Shown here: positions 2,672 to 59,820 of the stretch, in pieces
Numbering within the stretch: the first letter of the stretch is position 1
Layout of the letters: each line of letters opens with the position of its first letter
From: Haliotis cracherodii
Lineage: Eukaryota
Reading direction: 5' to 3'
Length of the DNA stretch: 64,000 bases
Assembly: GCF_022045235.1 (NCBI RefSeq)
Contig: NW_027266264.1
Location: forward strand, 86,676,001 to 86,740,000
The notes under the pieces: model-generated
The model's database searches: none
The model's input: the letters and a program-made list of their open reading frames with translations, nothing else
What the model was told of the DNA's origin: nothing
Program-made: the position numbers and the translations under genes

Positions 2672-2859
2672 CTGGAACAAAGGATAAGAAAATAGACAAG
2701 AAAGGGAGGTTTACAGAAACGAACTCGTCTGATAAATTTTTGATTCACGTCCTAATTAAACCTGCTCAGAAGCTATATGATGATTCGTAGTTCAAAGCAA
2801 GAATTCTGTTATAACCCCCATGAATAATAGAAGATGGAGATTTTAAAAGAAGACGCATC

Positions 2860-3645
2860 GCTACTGTGGATGACGAACTGATCAGGGCATCCATACCCAC
2901 AGGGCGCTCCACGTGTCTGTGTGTGTGTCTGTCCGTTTGTCCATCTGCCGGTGTGTCTGTGTGCGTGTCTGTGTTCTGTGTATTGCTAATGTGGGTGACA
3001 ACTGATCGGGACATTCATACCCCGCAGGGCGCTCCTCGTGTCTGTGTGTGTGTCTGTCCGTTTGTCTATCTGCCTGTGTGTCTGTGTGCGTGTCTGTGTT
3101 CTGTGCATTGCTACTGTGGATGACGGACTGGTCAGACATTCAACCCCGCAGGGCGCTCCTCGTGTCTGTGTGTGTCTGTCCGTTTGTCTATCTGCCTGTG
3201 TGTCTGTGTGCGTGTCTGTGTTCTGTGCATTGCTACTGTGGATGACGGACTGGTCAGACATTCAACCCCGCAGGCCGCTCCTCGTGTCTGTGTGTGTCTG
3301 TCCGTTTGTCTATCTACCTGTGTGTCTGTGTGCGTGTCTGTGTGCTGTGCATCGCTACCGTGGATGACGAACTGATCAGGGCATCCATACCCAGCAGACC
3401 GCTCTAAGTGTCTTCTCTGTGTGTGTCTGTTTGTCTATCTGCCTGTGTGTCTGTGTTCTGTGCATCGCTACTGTGGATGACGAACTCATCAGGACATCCA
3501 TACCCCGCAGGGCGCTCCACATGTCTGTGTGTGTCTGTTTGTCTATCTGCCTGTGTGTCTGTGTGCGTGTCTGTGTGCTGTGCATCGCCACCGTGGATGA
3601 CGGACTGGTCAGACATTCATACCCTGCAGGGCGCTCCATGTGAAG
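2860..3645. repeat. ~122-bp minisatellite with TG/TCTG-rich half
   Basis: CTACTGTGGATGACG(A/G)ACTG...CCCCGCAGGGCGCTCC head recurs at ~2861, 3111, 3233, 3355, 3468, 3588. Confidence 0.92.
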
Positions 3646-4452
3646 CATCTGTGTGTGTGTCTGTCTGTCGAGTGTCTGCATATGTTTAAGTTTGTATGTG
3701 GGTATCAGCCTGTCTGTCTGTGTGCCCGTGTGTCTGTCTGTCTATATACCTGTGTCTGTCTGTCTGTGTGTCTATCTCTGTGTTTGTCTGTCTGTCTACA
3801 TGTGTGTCTGTGTCTGTTTGTCTATCCGCTTGCATGTCTATCGGCCTGTTTTTCCGTATGTGTTTATCTGTCTGTGCGTCTGTCTATCTGCATGTGTGTC
3901 TGCCTGTCTGTCTGTGATTTTATGTGTCTATTTGCCTGTGTCTATTTGTCAATCCGCCTGTGTGTCCATCTGTCTGTGTATCGGTCTATCTGTCCGTGTG
4001 TCTGCCTGTCTGTCTGGCTGTCTATCTGCCTGTATCTGTTTGTCTATCCGCCTGTGTGTCCAGCTGTCTGTGTATCGGTCTATCTGCCCGTGTGTCTGTC
4101 TGTCTGTGTGACTGTGTGTCTGTTTGTCTGTGTATCTGTCTATCTGCCTGTGTGTCTGTCTGTGTTTCTGTCTGTCTATCTGTCTGTGTGACTGTGTCTG
4201 TTTGTCGATCCGCCTGTTTGTGTATTTGTGTGTCTGTTTGCATGTGTGTCTGTGTGTCTGCCTGTCAGCCTGTCTGAGTATGTGTCTGCCTATCTGCCTG
4301 TGTCTGTGTGTCTGTTTGTCTATCTGCCTGTGTGTCTATCTGTCTGTGTGTCTGTTTGTCTATCCGCCCGTGTGTCTATCCGTCTGTGTATCTGTTTGTG
4401 TTTCTGTCTGGCTGGCTGTGTGACTGTGTATCTGTTTGTCTATCCGCCTGTG
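3646..4452. repeat. Degenerate (TCTG)/(TG) compound microsatellite
   Basis: Low-complexity TGTCTGTC/TGTG tract continuous with the preceding array. Confidence 0.92.
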
Positions 4453-6254: not shown

Positions 6255-6580
6255 CGTTGTCTGTAGCAAGCTGTACCACGGCAAGCGGATGTGTGGGGTC
6301 GGGCGCTTGGCGGGTAAACCAGTGGGCGATGGCATGAAGCATTGGTCCATGTTGTAGGGAGATCTTATCCCTCTTCGAAGACCTGTATAGACCACGTAGA
6401 AGCTGTGCTCCGTGTAGGATGTAAATACAGTATTAAACACTTTTGGAGAAATATATACCCTGAATGTGTTTATGCAGACACAAAATGCAGGCTGCGATTT
6501 CACTCAAGTTTGGAATATTGCAGAGTGCGGCGTTAAACTACAAACACTCAAACAAACAAACAAAATAACAAACAAACAAC
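6255..6580 (+). mobile_element. Retroposed repeat carrying the shared SINE/LINE 3' tail
   Basis: Ends TGGAATATTGCAGAGTGCGGCGTTAAAC plus (CAAA)n like family A, but the body differs; 5' boundary approximate. Confidence 0.55.
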
Positions 6581-25716: not shown

Positions 25717-25948
25717 GTTTGTTTGTTTTATTCTTGCTTTATGACGGTGGTCTGTAAATAATCAAGTATGGACCAGACAGTCCAGTGATTGACATCAAGA
25801 GCATCAATCTAGGCAGTTGGGATGCGATGATATGCATCAACCAAGTCAGCGAGTCTGACCGCCCAGTCCCTTTAGTCACCCCTTATGACGCCTTTTACGG
25901 CAAGCATGGTTTGCTGAAGAACTATTTTGACCCAGAACTTTACAGGTC
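25717..25948 (-). mobile_element. SINE-like family A (decayed)
   Basis: Body matches family A on the reverse strand. Confidence 0.8.
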
Positions 25949-26447: not shown

Positions 26448-27107
26448 ACCATCTTCCCATTTCAGTCATTCACATATGCCACAACATACCACAACACGGA
26501 GTGTGCAAGAATCTTCCCATTTCAGTCATTCACATATGCCACAACATACCACAACACGGAGAGTGCAATAATCTTCCTATTGCAGTCATTCACATATGCC
26601 ACATCATACCACAACACGGAGTGTGCAATAATCTTCCCATTTCAGTCATTCACATATGCCACATCATACCACAACACGGAGAGTGCAATAATCTTCCCAT
26701 TGCAGTCATTCACATATGCCACAACATACCACAACACGGAGAGTGCAATAATCTTCCTATTGCAGTCATTCACATATGCCACATCATACCACAACACGGA
26801 GTGTGCAATAATCTTCCCATTGCAGTCATTCACATATGCCACATCATACCACAACACGGAGAGTGCAATAATCTTCCCATTGCAGTCATTCACTTATGCC
26901 ACAACATATCACAACACGGAGTGTGCAATAATCTTCCCATTGCAGTCATTCACTTATGCCACATCATACCACAACACGGAGAGTGCAATAATCTTCCCAT
27001 TGCAGTCATTCACTTATGCCACATCATACCACAACACGGAGTGTGCAATAATCTTCCCATTGCAGTCATTCACTTATGCCACAACATACCACAACACGGA
27101 GAGTGCA
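26448..27107. repeat. 60-bp minisatellite, ~11 near-identical copies
   Basis: Unit ATCTTCCCATTGCAGTCATTCACATATGCCACATCATACCACAACACGGAGTGTGCAATA. Confidence 0.97.
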
Positions 27108-27596
27108 CTACTTGGCAGCAGGTCAGTCTACCCAGGACCCCCCAACTTCATGAAACTGTGTATGTGATTTCATGACACTCTTGTAAATGAGATTGTTCCG
27201 TTTTCTTTTGATATAGAGCAGATCGATATGGCAAAATGTGGTGAATATATAAAAAATGATTTAATTCTGATAAGAAATTCTATGTCAGAAATCGTCTGCA
27301 GATGTGCAAGAAGCTCCAGTTTTCAATTAAAACCACTGCACAAGCATATTTGAATAATTACCATTGCCAGTGTTCGCAACTTAGGGGCCATTTGGTTCTA
27401 AAGCTCAAACCATATGGCTGGTGAAAACACATGCTGCTGTATAAAATTAAGATATGAATATGTATACAGTGTCCAGAGGAGCTTGTGTGGGTATACGCAC
27501 TCCACACACGGGGCGCTGAGACGCCATGATCTCATCATATTGGTAGGGGTGCGTGGGTGGGTAGTGAAAGAGGTTTGGTGGGTGAGTAGGAGACTA

Positions 27597-28573: not shown

Positions 28574-28820
28574 GACCCGTGGAGATCTTCAACATTCCAT
28601 GCTTGCCGTAAAAGGTGACTATACTTGTCGTAAGAGGCGCCTAACGGGATCGGGTAGTCAGGCTCGCTGACTTGGTTGATGCATGCCATCGTATTCAATT
28701 TGCGTGGATCGATGCTCATAATGTCAGTCACTGGATTAACTGGTCCAGCCTCAATTATTTACAGACCGCCGTCATATTGCTGGTATATTGCTGAGTGCGG
28801 CGTTAGTTAAACAACAAACA
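28574..28820 (+). mobile_element. SINE-like family A
   Basis: GACCCGTGGAGATC.. head (loop region deleted), full body and tail. Confidence 0.88.
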
Positions 28821-29024
28821 GACAGAAAAGATAGCAATAAGTGGCAGCTAAGAAGCTGTTGTATCAATGAAGACAGAGGAGACTGTTCTGTGTATGTAAC
28901 GTTCAGTACAGAGGCTGGTGCATTTGTCAAGCTAGTGTACCTATATTAAGCTCTTGCTTGATTTGTATACAAGTGCCGCCTGTATCGAAACGTACAGAAA
29001 CAGCTGCATTATCATCAGTTCATT

Positions 29025-29687
29025 CTGTCCTTGGTATCAGACCTGATGAGTGGCCCCTCTTTCTTCATCTTATCCGTGTAATCAAAACTGATGAGTGACC
29101 TCCCTTTCTTCATCTTGTCCTTGGCATCAGAACTGATGAATGGCCTCCCTTCATTCATCTTCTCCGTGTAATCAGAACTAATGAGTGGCCTCCCTTCCTT
29201 CATCTTGTCCTTGGTATCAGAACAGATGAGTCGCCTCCCTTTCTTCATCTTGTTCCGGGTATCAGAACTGATGAGTGGCCTCCCTTTCTTCATCTTGTTC
29301 TTGGTATCAAAACTGATGAGTGACCTCCCTTCCTTCATCTTATACGTGGTATCAAAAACTGATGAGTGACTCAGTTTCTTCATCTTGGTCTTGGTAATAG
29401 AGATGATGAGTGACCTCCCTTTCTTCAGCTTGTTCTTGGTATCAAAACTGATGAGTGGCCTCCCTTTCTTCATCTTGTCCGAGGTATCAGAACTGATGTG
29501 TCGCCTCTATTTCTTCATCTTGTCCAGGGTATCAGAACTGATGAGTGGCTCAGTTTCTTCATCTTGTTCTTGGTAATAGAACTGATGAGTCGCCTCCCTC
29601 TCTTCATCTTGTTTTTGGTATAAAAAATGATGAGTGGCCTCCCTTCCTTCATCTTATCCGTGCTATCAGACCTGTTGAGTGGCCTCT
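29025..29687. repeat. 45-bp minisatellite
   Basis: Unit TTGGTATCAGAACTGATGAGTGGCCTCCCTTTCTTCATCTTGTCC, ~14 copies. Confidence 0.93.
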
Positions 29688-30177
29688 CAGGCTTGTGATA
29701 TGTATTATTCAGTGTTTTGTTTGCAGCTGAAGAGTGTGCACTACAGAACGACGTCCTGGCGCTGCCCGTTCACCACTTGTCAGTTCAGTAAACAGATCAA
29801 AGGTTACATCGCCCTACAGTTTCTTCGAGGGCTTTTTCAGATTAATTACTTGCACTGACAACGAATACCATAAAATAAGCAGTTTAGAGACGAGAGGCAT
29901 TGACATGAAAGGCAGCATACATCTAGTTTGTCTCTTCAGCAGACAGTTTGAGGAGGTTCTCCACTTGGTAACATGCTTTCACGGTTGTCGTAATTACGAA
30001 TCTGTAGATAACACTTGGACAAACATGCAAATAATTGCCTTCATTTTGAGAGACTTGCAGGTGACTCATAGGATGAGTACTGGTGAAGGCAGTGTTCTTA
30101 TATAAGATACAGTAAAAATATACATATTAGATGTGTATGTGTACCGTTGTGCGTGTTACAGGACATTCTTTGTTATC

Positions 30178-30752
30178 ATAAGTTGATGGATGGCTGCACT
30201 AGGGTACATGTATGACCATGTGTGTGTGTGTCCTGAGAGTTATTACAAGTTGATGGTTGGCTGCACTAGGGTACATGTATGACCATATGTCTGTGTCCTG
30301 AGAGTTATTACAAGTTGATGGATGTCTGCACTAGGGTACATGTATGACCATGTGTATGTATGAGAGAGTTATTACAAGTTGATGGTTGGCTGCACTAGGG
30401 TACATGTATGACCATATGTCTGTGTCCTGAGAGTGTTTACAAGTTGATGTATGTCTGCACTAGGGTACATGTATGACCACGTGTATGTATGAGAGAGTTA
30501 TTACAAGTTGATGGTTGGCTGCACTAGGGTACATGTATGACCATATGTCTGTGTCCTGAGAGTGTTTACAAGTTGATGGTTGGAGCACTAGGGTACATGT
30601 ATGACCACGTGTATGTATGAGAGAGTTATTACAAGTTGATGGTTGGCTGCACTAGGGTACATGTATGACCATGTGTCTGTGTCCTGAGAGTTATTACAAG
30701 TTGATGGTTGGAGCACTAGGGTACATGTATGACCATGTGTCTGTGCCCTGAG
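30178..30752. repeat. 65-bp minisatellite with two interleaved variants
   Basis: ACAAGTTGATGGTTGGCTGCACTAGGGTACATGTATGACC.. recurs every 65 bp. Confidence 0.94.
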
Positions 30753-31172
30753 AGGCAGCAGTTCTTCGTCTTTAGTTGTTGAATTATAGTATGTTAAGGC
30801 CATAGATGTTTAAAACGTAAGTGTTGATGGAAACAATTGTAGTCTTTCATTGGCTTTCAGCAGGAAGACATGAAACCGCCCATTGCTAACAACTTCTATA
30901 TTGTCCAACTGGGACGCTTCTCCCGTCGTCAAACCGAGGGACGGTACGGTAGCCTAATGGTCGTTTCTCTGAAGGCCCAGGTTCCGATAATCCGGTATGT
31001 TGGTATTTAATTGCTGACTGCATCCAAGAAGGTTATAAAATGTGTGAACTCAGGGAGCACCCACGAGCACGGGTATGGTACTGACAAACCTACAAGACGA
31101 AACTGGAATTCGAACCGATGACCACAGGTTTCTGGTATACTACGGGACGCGTCAGCATCGCGGAATGCGGCA

Positions 31173-31680
31173 ACTTGAGCGCCTTAAGCACCTCGAGCAC
31201 CTTGAGCGACTTGAGCGATTTGAGCACCTTCAGCGACATTTAGCACCTGGAGCACCTTGCGCGACCTTTAGCTCTTTAGCACCTTAAGCGACTTGAGCAA
31301 CTTGAGAACCTTTACCACCTTGGGCGACTTGAACACCTTGTGCGACTTGAGCACCTTTGATCACCTTGAGCGACTTGAGCGACTTGAGCGACTTGAGCGA
31401 CTTGAGCAACTAGGGCGACATGAGCACCTTGGGGGACTTGAGCACCTTGAGCACCTTATCACTTTGAGCGACTTGAGCGACTTGAGCACCTTGAGCACCT
31501 TGAGCGACTTGAGCACCTTGAGCGACTTGAGCACCTTGGGCGACTAGAGCACCTTGAGTGTCTTGAGCACCTTGAACATCTTGAGCACCTTAAGGATTTT
31601 GAGCAATTTGAACACCTTGAGCACCTTGAGCGATTTGAACACCTTGAGCGACTTCAGCGACTCGAGCACCTTGAGTGACG
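31173..31680. repeat. 9-bp compound repeat (CTTGAGCGA / CTTGAGCAC)
   Basis: Two interleaved nonamer variants. Confidence 0.9.
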
Positions 31681-31793
31681 TGGTCACCCTGGTCCCTTCC
31701 AATGAAATGTCTCAGTACAGTCCCATCAGTGTCTCCTACAGTCCTGACACCATAGTAGGTTTTTATGAAGATGCTCATACAGCACCATATGTC

Positions 31794-33797: not shown

Positions 33798-34310
33798 TTG
33801 GTTTGTTTGTTGTTTAACGCCGCACTCAGCATTAGTCCAGCTATGTGACGGCGTAACAAATGTTATATTTGGGATAACACTTTTTTATAGTAAACTACAG
33901 ATTCTCGTACTTTTTTAGGTTGAATCCCATTCGGGATTCGAACCCACACTGACAGAATATAGCACCTATTCTCCAGCACACAAAGTCAGCGATCTAACCC
34001 ACTCAGACACCGAAGCTTCAACAAAAATGAAAGTTCGACAACTGGTAGCCTAGTTCACGTACCCTTTCTAAATGGCATTGTGTGTTCATATATGACGGCG
34101 GTCTGTAAATAATCGAGTCTGGACCAGACAATCCATGTGTTTGAGATCATGCGCATATATCTACGCATTTGGAATACGATAGCATGCATCAACCAAGTCA
34201 GAGAGCCTGACCACCTGATCCCGTTAGTCGCCTCTTACGACAAGCATAGTCATCTTTTAAGGCAAGCATGGGTTGCTGAAGACCTACTCTTCCCCGAATC
34301 TTCACGGTTC
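33798..34310 (-). mobile_element. SINE-like family A split by a nested insertion
   Basis: Tail at 33798-33853; remainder at 34089-34310. Confidence 0.85.
33854..34088 (-). mobile_element. Insertion containing a tRNA-like sequence (~33925-34015)
   Basis: Reverse complement has GGTGTCTGAGTGGGTTAGATCGCTGACT...GTGGGTTCGAATCCC; 12-bp duplication TATGTGACGGCG/TATATGACGGCG at the borders. Confidence 0.7.
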
Positions 34311-35632: not shown

Positions 35633-36163
35633 TATGGTCTGGCCAGTTCTTTTAAGGCTGTGCAGAGCTACATCCCGTGGGCGTCCCAGGATCCTGTGAT
35701 CATGAGTTCGAATCCCAGATTCTCCCTGATTGTGTGTCTAGGTTTCTCTACACCAATCCCTTGCTGCTGAGATTCATCAAAGTGACAAACACTAAGTTGT
35801 TTGTTTGTTGTAAACGCCGCCCTCCGCAATATTCCAGTTATATGACAGCGGTCTGTATGTAAATAATCGAGTCTGGGCCAGACAATCCAGTGATTGACAT
35901 CCTGAGCATCGATCTACACAACTGGGATACTATGACATGCATCAACCATGTCCGCGAGCCTGACCACCCGATCCCGTTAGTCGCCTCTTACAACAAGCAT
36001 AGACGCCTTTTACGGCAAGCATGGGTTGCTGAAGAGTGAAGACCATTTCTAACCCAGAAATCTTCACGAGACGATAAACACAAAGACCAGCATCACTTTC
36101 GACTGTCCACCTACAAGCTGACACGCCGTGACATAACTGAAATACTGTGAAACCCAACTCACA
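35633..36163 (+). mobile_element. tRNA-derived SINE family C, interrupted by a family A copy
   Basis: GCTGTGCAGAG..GAGTTCGAATCCC..CTAGGTTT..CACCA before the insert and GCATCACTT..AAGCTGACACGCCGTGA..AACTCAC after it, as in 62610-62890. Confidence 0.75.
35796..36069 (-). mobile_element. SINE-like family A
   Basis: Near full-length match on the reverse strand. Confidence 0.9.
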
Positions 36164-36500: not shown

Positions 36501-36663
36501 TTTTGGTTTTTCACATCGGGGGATAAATCTAGAAAACAACAACCCTAAAATTGAGGTAAGTAAACTTATTTATTATTTCAGGTCGGAATAAAAATTTAGG
36601 GTGTGCGGGATATGGGACACACAGAAAACAATATGTTCTACTCGTTCTACTAAAACAATGGCA

Positions 36664-36907
36664 CCCGTGAAGAGAAGGGGTAGAAAAGGTCTTCAGCAAC
36701 CCATGCTTGCTGTGAAAGGCGACTATACTCGTCGTAAGAGGCGACTAACGGGATCGCTGACTTGGTTGATGCATGTCATCGTATTCCAAATGCGTAGATC
36801 TATGCGCACGATGTCAAGCACTGGAATGTCTGGTCCAGCCTCGATTATTTACAGACCGCCGTCATATAGCTGCAAAATAGTGCGGCGTTAAAAACAAACA
36901 ACAAACA
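36664..36907 (+). mobile_element. SINE-like family A
   Basis: ACCCGTGAAGA.. head, body and (CAAA) tail. Confidence 0.88.
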
Positions 36908-37436
36908 CTAAAACAATGGTGCCACACACGCATGTCGCTGTGTTACTGTGCAACAAGTGACGATGATGCTTCAGAGGGAATTATTCTTACAATGAGACAT
37001 ATGGTATGGTGGTAATGATATTTATTGTTATTGTTGCTACGAATATTTCATAATTGGTGCTATGGAACTGATGAGACGAACGTCACAGACTGTATAGTTA
37101 TAGTAATAGAAAGAATTCTCTGTGTACAGAATATTATCTTTGAATAGCTACTCAAAAAGACATTTTTGAAAACGGAAAATGTAAATAAAGTTCAATGTAA
37201 ATACATTTATGCTGAAATTAAATAATGCAACTTTTAGTTCATATTCATATATTTTGTCAACTGTAAGGTCGTGATTCACAATTTGCACGTTCATGCATGG
37301 CGCACAATTTGGATGTTTGCGTGTTTTTTGGTAGCATGAGACATTTCAAATGTGAACAGCATGTGAACACGATTATTCTTTAGCTATCAGGTGCTCATAA
37401 AAACAGTTTTGTTTATCCGTAAATAACGCTAACGCA

Positions 37437-39746: not shown

Positions 39747-39963
39747 GACCCGTGAAGACCCGGGTTAGAATAAGTCTTCACTAACCCATGTTTGTCGTAA
39801 AAGACGCATGTGCTTGTCGTAAGAGGCGGCTAACGGGATCGGGTGGTCAGGTTCGCTGACTTGATTGTTGCATGTCATCGCATCCCAATGGCGTGGATCG
39901 ATGCTCATGATGTCAATCACTGGATTGTCTGGACCAGATTCGAGTATTACAGACCGCCGTCAT
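39747..39963 (+). mobile_element. SINE-like family A (3'-truncated at CCGCCGTCAT)
   Basis: Complete head and body; tail absent. Confidence 0.88.
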
Positions 39964-48269: not shown

Positions 48270-49095
48270 ATTGTCTATACCGGTGTGTTACTCTACAAGT
48301 CTATACTCGTGTGTTACTCTACACAGTCTATACTCGTGTGTTACTCTACAAGTCTATACTCGTGTTTTACTCTACACAGTCTATACTCGCGTGTTACTCA
48401 ACATAGTCTATACTTGCGTGTGTTACTCTACATGGTCTATACTCGCGTGTTACTCTACACGGTCTATACCCGCGTGTTACTCTAAACAGTCTATACTGGC
48501 GTGTAACTCTACAAAAGACAACGCATGTGTTATTCTGCACGGTCTGTACTCATGTATTACTCTTCACAGTCTATACTCGCGTGTTACTCTACACAGTCTA
48601 TACTCGCGTGTAACTCTACATAGACTATAGGCATGTGTTATTCTACAGTTTATGACCTCGCGTGTTACTCTACATAGTCTATACTCGCGTGTGTTGCTTT
48701 ACATAGTTTATACTCGCGTGTCTTAATCTTTACACCCGTGCGTGACTCCACATAGTCTTTACGCTCGCGTGTAACTCCTCACCCGTGAAGAATAGGTCTT
48801 CAGCAACCTATGCTTGTCGGAAAAGGCGACTAACGGGATCGTGTGGTCAGGCTCGCTAACTTGGCTAGTGCATGTCATCGTATTCAAATTGCTGTTGATC
48901 GATGTTCATGATATCAATCACTGGCTTGTCTATGTGCGCCATCTAGCGGGATATTGCCGAGTGCGGCGTTAAACAACAAACAAAGCGTGTCTATGCCCTC
49001 GCGTGTTTGTCAACATGGCCTATATACTCGCGTGCTACTCCACATAGTGTATTCCCTTCGTGTGTTACACTACATAGTCAATTCCCTCGCGTGGC
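48270..49095. repeat. 27-bp degenerate minisatellite
   Basis: GTCTATACTCGCGTGTTACTCTACACA units, split by a family A copy. Confidence 0.88.
48781..48984 (+). mobile_element. SINE-like family A (single-hairpin variant)
   Basis: ACCCGTGAAGAATAGGTCTTCAGCAACC..GGCGACTAACGGGATC..GCGGCGTTAAACAACAAAC. Confidence 0.85.
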
Positions 49096-55432: not shown

Positions 55433-56258
55433 ATGACACTTACATACAGGGCCTGTATGTTTTTTTCTATTATTAATAATTGAGCGTAATATACTAAATT
55501 CTCACAGATCACTTTCATTATTGAACAAGCCAAATTGATATATTTGGCTTATTGTCTTTACAGGACTTCGGTAACAGTTATTTCCTGTACCACATGTTCA
55601 GATTTAATATTCCCATTTCGAGAAGTGTTGACTTTCATATCTGTTCCCATATAGTCTACCCGCCACTACTAACTCATGCGAAGGGCGACTTTTTGCGACA
55701 ATCTGCTGATAGTGCTATCCCCTGCCGTCGAGGAATTTAACCGTCTCACCTGCCATGCAGTCAAAGTTTATTGCCACAATCGTAGCATATGTTTGACATG
55801 TTTTATGTGAATAAACCTTTTCGGCAAATTCAATTTCGTTAAAAAAGAATTCAAACAGCTAGGCTGTTTACACCTGATTAATTGTGTCTACTGTCTACTC
55901 ACCAGAGGCCTGATTAATTGCATCTACTGTCTACTCACCAAGCCAACGGCTGAAGGATTTTGGGGAGAGAGAAAGAGAGAAAGAAAGAAAGAGAGAAATA
56001 TTTTATTCAGATGTCTAGCGTGTTTAACAAAGTAACATCATAAAAACATATCACATTGTACCCCCGGTTAGTTAGGGCCTATTAGACACCAGTTACCGTA
56101 AAACGGTCAATAATAATAAAAGCAGTAATAATGCTAAACTAATACAAATACCCTATGTTTATAGCTTTATAGTTAATAACAGAGCGAGGGGAAACAACTA
56201 TGATCTGTTGTTTTGTCGACGCCGTCAACGTTCTGTAGCTGAGTGGGGAATCGGACTT

Positions 56259-56460
56259 GTTTGTTTATTTGCTTGTTTAACGCCGCACGCAGGAATTTTC
56301 CAGCTATACGACGGCGGTCTGTAAATTATCGAGTCTGGACCAGACAATCTGGTGATTGATATTATGAGCATCGATCCACGCAACTGGGATACGATGACAT
56401 GTATCAACCAAGTCAGCGAACCTGACCACCCGACCCCGTTAGTCGCCGAATCTTTACGGG
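56259..56460 (-). mobile_element. SINE-like family A
   Basis: Tail and body match; head partly deleted. Confidence 0.85.
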
Positions 56461-59557: not shown

Positions 59558-59820
59558 GTTGGTTGGTTGGTTGGTTTGTTGTTTAACGCCGCAATATTCC
59601 AGCTATATGACGGCGGTCTGTGAATAATCGAGTCTGTACCAGGCAATCCAGTGATTGACATCATGAGCATCGATCCATCCAATGACATACATCAACCAAG
59701 TCAGCGAGCCTGACCACCCGATCCCGTTAGTCGCCTTTTACGACAAGCATAGTCGCCTTTTACGGCAAGCATGGGTTGGACTAGGTCAAGACCTATTCTA
59801 CCCCAGAATCTTCACGGGCC
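59558..59820 (-). mobile_element. SINE-like family A
   Basis: Near full-length match on the reverse strand. Confidence 0.9.

Follow-up and report, generated by a model that had tools for sequence, protein, structure and literature searches.

The window analysed here, a 64-kb stretch of the Haliotis cracherodii genome, contains a dispersed repeat of ~260 bp (Table 1). A 15-mer from the head of this repeat matched the window 16 times at up to three mismatches, compared with 1.08 matches expected (0 of 100 shuffles). A natural copy close to the majority sequence, used as a BLAST query, recovered 13 loci that include head or body and a further fragment of the tail only, which agrees with the ~14 family copies counted in the preliminary description and confirms the copy at 39747-39963 as real. 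A covariance model found 11 heads in the window. Across the 1.18 Gb of the genome scanned for copies (80 contigs), exact 29-mer matches numbered 7,733 for a double-hairpin and 2,815 for a single-hairpin form, together more than 10,500, a lower bound on the SINE copy number. In the majority form, a 22-nt stretch with the hairpin unit is duplicated in tandem; the consensus quoted earlier had collapsed this duplication. The mean divergence from the majority was 8% among 44 aligned copies, a figure biased to the best hits.

The SINE starts with GA followed by CCCG and ends in (AAAC)n. In 51 full-length genomic copies, the base at -1 before CCCG was A in 41 and that at -2 was G in 36, and position -3 was mixed. 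TSDs of 7-25 bp were detected in 20 of the 51 copies; in 17 of these, the gap to the start was 0-3 nt, which bears out the defined 5' end proposed from the window alone. The head also proved free of tRNA boxes, as had been claimed. ARAGORN predicted no tRNA gene in five SINE loci, loose A-box matches were scattered, and the one B-box-like match lay at +150, outside the head, so that the A and B boxes expected in the first 70 nt of a tRNA-derived SINE were absent. Rfam gave no match for the head, either in the window at the gathering cut-off or in 7 kb at E ≤ 10, and none for seven better-preserved copies.

Judged from its sequence, the family is very likely of the LP-SINE type described in PMC4758252 (Matetovici 2016). 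According to the sections of that paper on LP-SINEs, these elements are 255 bp long, occur in Haliotis, Ostrea, Saccostrea, and Littorina, and have a 70-bp head matching the 5' ends of Nimb-17_LMi, I-3_DR, and RTE-9_CPB. Like the described members (Hdi_LP, Hmi_LP, Oco/Oed_LP, Sgl_LP, and Lsa_2), the present family has a non-tRNA head of ~70 bp shared with LINEs, a length of ~255 bp, TSDs, and a tandem-repeat tail. Homology of its head to the Nimb-17/I-3_DR/RTE-9 5' domain follows from a hairpin and layout as in the 'Nimb-17 homology' head of supplementary figure S2 in PMC4758252, and from the presence of the module in a LINE 5' UTR of this genome. In that figure, the head of the scallop MESC SINEs agrees with the present one in its hairpin and, judged by eye, in the arrangement of the pseudoknot. 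The hexamer AATATA, named in the same sections, is missing from the majority tail of the present SINE. These sections propose a promoter for the head, cite the L1Tc promoter/ribozyme merely as an analogy, identify no partner LINE, and give neither a secondary structure nor a viral occurrence of the head; the last two are added here.

Table 1 SINE copies in the window and parts of the head module in the copy at 39747-39963
Feature	Position	Strand	Basis
Tail-only SINE fragment	6511-6555	+	BLAST
Head-only copy, single-hairpin form	16323-16391	-	Covariance model, BLAST
Near full-length SINE copy	18821-19072	+	BLAST
SINE copy truncated at 5' end	24141-24319	-	BLAST
SINE copy with internal deletion	24905-25078	-	BLAST
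SINE copy, diverged	25729-25948	-	BLAST
SINE copy with deletion in head	28575-28827	+	Covariance model, BLAST
SINE copy split by insertion (body 34089-34310, tail 33798-33853)	33798-34310	-	BLAST
Full-length SINE copy	35797-36071	-	Covariance model, BLAST
Full-length SINE copy	36663-36916	+	BLAST
SINE copy with head and body of LP type, no 3' tail	39747-39963	+	88.5% to near-majority natural copy over 218 nt
SINE copy with deletions, single-hairpin form	48781-48984	+	Covariance model, BLAST
SINE copy without most of head	56255-56447	-	BLAST
Full-length SINE copy with TSD	59563-59818	-	BLAST
5' terminal GA, first two bases of the element	39747-39748	+	G in 36/51, A in 41/51 full-length copies; TSDs abut
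Pseudoknot stem S1, 5' strand	39749-39752	+	Alignment, descriptor
Loop L1, single conserved U	39753	+	Cross-family comparison
Stem S2, 5' strand, 7 bp (6/7 paired in this copy)	39754-39760	+	Two-sided changes at 7/7 pairs
Stem S1, 3' strand, inside S2 loop	39761-39764	+	88.9% of cells paired
Loop L3, ending in conserved AGAAUA (60-150 nt insertions tolerated in other families)	39765-39772	+	
Stem S2, 3' strand	39773-39779	+	Alignment test
Degenerate first copy of duplicated hairpin unit	39794-39808	+	
Conserved hairpin domain: GCNU, 5-bp stem, AARAG loop, UAA, 3' strand of variable closing stem P3	39812-39837	+	

Minisatellite arrays occupy positions 1-1654, 2855-4452, 21236-22367, 26451-27110, and 29019-31692 of the window. 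At 18740-20005, a 79-bp direct repeat (92%) surrounds a SINE copy and a 50-bp satellite (19073-19925); it is either a long TSD or a local duplication.

Predicted fold of the head module

The SINE head is predicted to form a ~70-nt module consisting of a 5' H-type pseudoknot and a near-invariant hairpin. In the cross-family comparison, a stem S1 of 3-5 bp is followed by one U, a stem S2 of 7 bp, and a loop ending in AGAAUA. A variable linker of 11 to 21 nt joins the pseudoknot to GCNU, after which come a 5-bp hairpin, whose loop is AARAG, and UAA. On 15 sequences, this fold paired 88.0% of 225 cells, compared with 33-57% for slid registers, and none of 500 shuffles reached its covariation score of 0.390 (versus 0.149). 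Two-sided changes were seen at all seven S2 pairs and at two of three S1 pairs, the latter in one sequence each, and S1 is supported by conservation more than by covariation. The hairpin was 98.7% paired and four of its five pairs never varied; the closing stem P3 is variable, yet only 9 of 5,000 permuted partners were as good. These counts include two misregistered rows of alignment A2 (L287, L375) and one shifted by a single base (L288).

The preliminary description had recognised a conserved, structured RNA with a pseudoknot and linked it to a defined 5' end, but chose the wrong pseudoknot. On the same 15 sequences, its outer helix CCCGT/ACGGG and pseudoknot GGGTTAG/CTAACCC paired 46.6% of cells, and 385-456 of 500 shuffles scored as high, so that the test of covariation across families fails the earlier helices and passes a different fold. 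The perfect 7-bp GGGTTAG/CTAACCC pairing is private to the copy at 39747, both halves being found in 1 of 44 copies. The stem TGAAGA/TCTTCA and the hairpin GTCGT/GCGAC were retained.

A fixed-geometry descriptor of the fold was matched by 13 of 17 representatives, including all six independent viral ones, compared with 87 of 8,500 shuffles and 33 of 272 swaps. The four misses (L310, L069, L285, and L288) are all single genomic copies, 4 of 11 of which fail through decay. A covariance model built from the 10 non-viral rows only scored six viral loci at 37-67 bits and did not exceed 22 bits on 64 control loci lacking the pseudoknot (58 searched loci out of the 109 that the 15-mer scan gave, and six others). 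When the pseudoknot pattern was searched without the hairpin anchor, 111 viral matches were obtained, of which four had six of the seven S2 pairs and none had all seven; the hairpin was absent from all 111. G-U pairs favour the sense strand which, together with the five RNA viruses that carry the module, indicates that it acts at the RNA level. Single-strand folding z values ranged from +0.41 to -2.44 over seven heads (-1.60 for the 39747 copy), weak evidence from a method that cannot model pseudoknots.

Searching the genome for hairpin variants returned mostly mutants of the SINE. Three older head variants in the same genome (L373, L374, L375) have S2 sequences that differ and are still complementary. 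At three other loci (L407, L408, and L411, at 86.56 Mb of contig C1 and at 4.16 and 4.87 Mb of C2, genome G000), the pseudoknot half of a head variant forms ~53-bp tandem arrays. We also take the 5' strand of the hairpin (39816-39822) to resemble the decoding-site strand atop helix 44 of small-subunit rRNA, a resemblance that may be due to chance.

The fold is unlike known ribozymes, in line with the earlier expectation. Compared with the nested double pseudoknot of HDV ribozymes, with its P3/L3 YCCUCG and P1.1, the SINE head has the L3 motif on neither strand and no Rfam match at E ≤ 10. Hammerhead ribozymes have the cores CUGANGA and GAAA; both were not found together on one strand of the head, and the antisense strand has the first only. 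The Rfam covariance models of twister, twister-sister, pistol, hatchet, and hairpin ribozymes gave no match.

The module in a LINE, other animals and viruses

A search of the same genome for heads with other S2 sequences gave 847 matches and revealed an autonomous LINE of ~6.2 kb, with loci including C1:38617250-38627200 (L413) and C2:20917000-20926900 (L415). Zinc knuckles in its ORF1 and APE, RT, and RNase H domains in its ORF2 of 1,231 aa place it in the I/Nimb group, for which we take Nimb to be the clade name. The module (62-69 bits in the covariance model) lies ~59 nt in from the LINE 5' end. By sequence, the initial 58 nt constitute a minimal HDV-like ribozyme, with a 7-bp P1 starting from a 5' G-U, P2, P3, L3, GG, and the catalytic C of J4/2, and LINE copies begin at the G of P1. 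The Rfam model HDV-F-prausnitzii matched this end at E = 0.0025 with 27.5 bits, below its gathering score of 44; the element is a candidate with the architecture of an HDV-like ribozyme and predicted cleavage. A passage in PMC5786205 cites such ribozymes at the 5' ends of LINEs of the R1, R2, R4, and RTE clades and of the Ingi and LOA clades; the present LINE likewise starts with one, and I/Nimb is not among the six.

The HDV-like element was kept upstream of an intact pseudoknot in 57 of 57 sampled LINE heads, and none of the 57 copies started at the pseudoknot. This speaks against cleavage by the module at its own 5' edge and against a role in setting the transcription start. The pseudoknot was 96% identical among eight LINE copies that averaged 69% identity in ORF1. 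The hairpin flanks in the LINE are altered, with U changed to G before the stem in 55 of 57 heads and UAA kept in 22, so the LINE module may have lost a function. Within 720 nt of the module, the LINE leader contains 11-17 ATGs. Among L413-L420, ORF1 is 63-99% identical and the 5' ends are ~96% identical, which reflects either strong selection or exchange of 5' ends. LINE heads occur about once per 10 kb in both orientations at 20.88-21.58 Mb of C2 and 38.55-38.64 Mb of C1, suggesting clusters of nested insertions.

The LINE 3' end and the SINE tail are identical at 29 of 40 positions, a similarity reached in 0 of 5,000 shuffles, but with a score of 32 compared with 28 elsewhere in the LINE. 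This sequence comparison gives moderate evidence for the LINE group as a candidate partner of the SINE; a search for a LINE with exactly the tail of the SINE gave 22 matches. In having a head from a LINE 5' UTR and a tail resembling the LINE 3' end, the SINE is similar to the bipartite non-autonomous LINE derivatives treated in part of PMC5786205. It differs from them in that its head starts behind the LINE ribozyme rather than at the LINE 5' end and its body is unrelated to the LINE. In three small-RNA runs of a related organism, 37 reads mapped to one SINE copy and 46 to the LINE head, in both cases on both strands and with no pile-up at the 5' end.

Outside this genome, a pattern scan of metagenome contigs found at least 123 loci, mostly several related animal SINE families along with singletons. 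The boundary was constant at 2 nt before CCCG in 74 heads while L3 spanned from under 12 to 150 nt, and the first base was a purine in 63 of the 74. The SINE 5' end thus tracks the pseudoknot and not the invariant sequences. Composite families with an apparently broken pseudoknot turned out to be heads carrying long L3 insertions. None of 60 intact short-loop heads shared abutting upstream sequence. Of 102 metagenome copies, 54 had a T5+ run no more than 100 nt from the hairpin, which speaks against Pol III in the families concerned. In L069 and L287, the module is followed by what we take to be RTE 5' UTR-like sequence. This agrees with the match to RTE-9_CPB given among the LP-SINE data of PMC4758252.

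Among 185,579 prokaryote species, the genomes gave eight matches. These do not point to a bacterial family. By eye, five of the eight (L282, L283, L285, L287, and L288) resemble repeats of animal origin on contigs of symbionts or MAGs, and the four of them that were scored reached 35-56 bits; the other three are chance matches.

Viral contigs gave nine matches to a 19-mer, of which seven contained the full module and represent six independent viruses, and two contained the hairpin only. As the viral instances were found by exact patterns, the invariance of the hairpin in them is partly by construction. Rfam gave no match on eight viral loci. In five RNA-virus contigs, the module lies on the coding strand, with S1 7-102 nt after the last stop codon and the module 88-182 nt from the contig end. 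The RNA-virus carriers encode the Pfam domains Peptidase_A21, RdRP_4, Capsid-VNN, and RdRP_3; L031 has an RdRp-like ORF by eye that has no Pfam match, and also a second, cut-off tandem copy of the module with compensatory S2 changes. A 212-kb DNA virus has the module between two co-oriented ORFs. Neither body nor tail of the SINE follows the viral modules. Relatives were searched for two viral carriers, and only the same or identical sequences were returned. The 3' UTR of L034 contains a second hairpin like the conserved one near the contig end.

Possible functions of the module

[quoted passage not shown] By analogy with viral xrRNAs, we tentatively propose, at a little below even probability, that it is a roadblock to 5'-to-3' exonucleases that would fix the SINE 5' end. 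The SINE would have no promoter of its own and would depend on Pol II transcripts that read through from promoters of the host. A nuclease would then digest the RNA upstream of the module and stop ~2 nt before S1. The protected remainder would serve as the template for a genomic copy made by a LINE of the I/Nimb type, the presumed partner, that recognises the SINE tail. A short 3' fragment would be protected in RNA viruses, and the hairpin would probably bind a host factor or dock on the pseudoknot.

A roadblock would match the position and the tandem habit of viral xrRNAs (PMC8374639, PMC10520033). In the parts of these papers and of PMC10321173 that deal with coremin and flavivirus xrRNAs, these are compact pseudoknot modules that start viral 3' UTRs, sometimes in tandem, and have a two-part layout as here; coremin is a small pseudoknot with a downstream hairpin, comparable to the present pseudoknot and hairpin. 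For coremin motifs, a position at the start of the 3' UTR is treated as an indication of Xrn1 resistance in PMC10520033. Like xrRNAs, the module has a pseudoknot close to its putatively protected 5' end, and it is predicted to halt the nuclease. It falls outside the consensus of the known classes (flaviviral, luteo/tombus, and coremin; three-way junction, YGAD or YGNNAD first loop, the coremin first loop taken from PMC10520033), having no three-way junction and no YGAD loop but a 7-bp covarying S2 and an AGAAUA loop. It also lies at the 5' ends of retroelements, whereas up to the 2021 review (PMC8374639) viruses were the only source of characterised xrRNAs; the part concerned of that review calls their existence in cellular genomes an open question.

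Several observations weigh against the roadblock. According to the section of PMC10321173 on frameshift pseudoknots, Xrn1 is not stalled by these, whether or not a hairpin follows, so that more than an H-type pseudoknot is required. The SINE 5' end lies 2-3 nt before S1, with flush pairing possible in some families, whereas the dengue xrRNA halts the nuclease 5 nt before the first conserved base according to PMC3968743. Some trimmed LINE templates might be expected, yet no LINE copy started at the pseudoknot. The purine as first base also fits transcription initiation or ribozyme cleavage.

The wider reading, that the module represents a new xrRNA class exchanged among animal retroelements, RNA viruses, and DNA viruses, which would give promoterless SINEs and some LINEs a protected 5' end, is a slightly more doubtful proposition. 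If true, it would mean a cellular xrRNA with tens of thousands of copies per genome, a third route to retroelement RNA besides internal promoters and ribozymes, and the cellular use of a trick so far described in viruses. The SINE type and the shared head sequence were already known from the LP-SINE sections of PMC4758252. This 70-bp domain, swapped among SINEs and distant LINEs, had been on record since 2016 without a function, and its RNA fold now emerges from covariation. In open-access literature text, we found no match to the motif string and no description of the fold of the module, its viral occurrence, the order of HDV-like element and module, or the candidate partner. Whichever mechanism applies, the module is a widespread structured RNA missing from Rfam, and the analysis further yields a candidate partner LINE group and a candidate HDV-like ribozyme on an I/Nimb-type LINE.

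Mobile modules of viral 3' UTRs are known in s2m and the 3'CITEs. They are similar to the present module in that a near-invariant core is scattered among unrelated RNA viruses, and differ from it in that there is no sequence or Rfam similarity and the present module is mainly a retroelement head. A 3'CITE-like element for cap-independent translation, or for binding a ribosome or factor, is the main rival to the roadblock; it is unlikely as the sole explanation, but may coexist with it as a second function. Such an element would help uncapped LINE and viral RNAs to be translated and bring the SINE to LINE ORF2 on ribosomes, with the 5' end set by something else. It would suit the location of the module immediately after an HDV-like ribozyme that would leave the LINE RNA uncapped, the many ATGs of the LINE leader, and the hairpin, which, as might be expected of a binding site, is invariant in sequence, has a loose tether, and occurs twice in the majority SINE form. 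The viral groups that carry the module often lack poly(A) tails. Support for translation by ribozyme-cut viral 5' UTRs is reported in part of PMC13725137. However, SINEs encode nothing, and this explanation does not account for the many SINE families that start 2 nt before S1.

Self-cleavage and promoter activity are both improbable, the promoter slightly the more so. A self-cleaving ribozyme of a new class, with the corrected fold and cutting just 5' of S1, would explain the sharp purine 5' end almost flush with S1, the invariant unpaired bases, and the unrelated sequences that abut intact metagenome heads; linear RNA viruses can carry ribozymes in their UTRs, sometimes as tandem pairs, as stated in a passage of PMC13725137. 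A DNA-level internal promoter (the 'LINE promoter' of the passages in PMC4758252), possibly with an RNA role like that of the L1Tc 77-nt element, would fit the purine at +1, the terminal 5' position in SINEs and in three Repbase LINEs, and a head that replaces or precedes tRNA heads in the same passages. Either activity at the module edge would strip the ribozyme from the LINE or give copies starting at the module, and thus needs the extra assumption that the LINE module, with its altered hairpin flanks, is a disabled form; a roadblock needs none. Cleavage there would moreover cost five RNA viruses, which nevertheless have the canonical form, the final 88-182 nt of their coding strand, and a linker of 11 to 21 nt and a hairpin duplicated in most SINE copies are also at odds with a ribozyme. 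A promoter is countered by the conservation of S2 as pairing rather than sequence, by invariant blocks whose distance from the 5' end varies by up to 150 nt, and by RNA viruses, which have no DNA stage and in whose 3' UTRs the module evidently works as RNA. Of the ribozyme, promoter, and structured retroposition signal considered in the preliminary description, the first two are disfavoured by the 57 LINE heads and the RNA-virus positions, and the third is still a fair description.

Less probable still is a recognition or termination signal for the LINE RT or ORF1 protein, or a host endonuclease substrate at the base of stacked S1-S2. Strong conservation within LINE 5' ends and a 5' end near the helix start would fit these, but a LINE-protein signal leaves the viral 3' UTRs unexplained and an endonuclease site would again strip the HDV-like element from the LINE. 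The least probable reading takes the viral instances as neutral recent captures from host retroelements, which would be silent on function. It draws on there being just six independent viral instances in the collection scanned, with relatives not found. It is opposed by the intact pseudoknot in all six, with differing S2 sequences, against the decay among single genomic copies, by the lack of SINE body or tail 3' of the viral modules, and by the compensatory changes in the tandem copy of L031.
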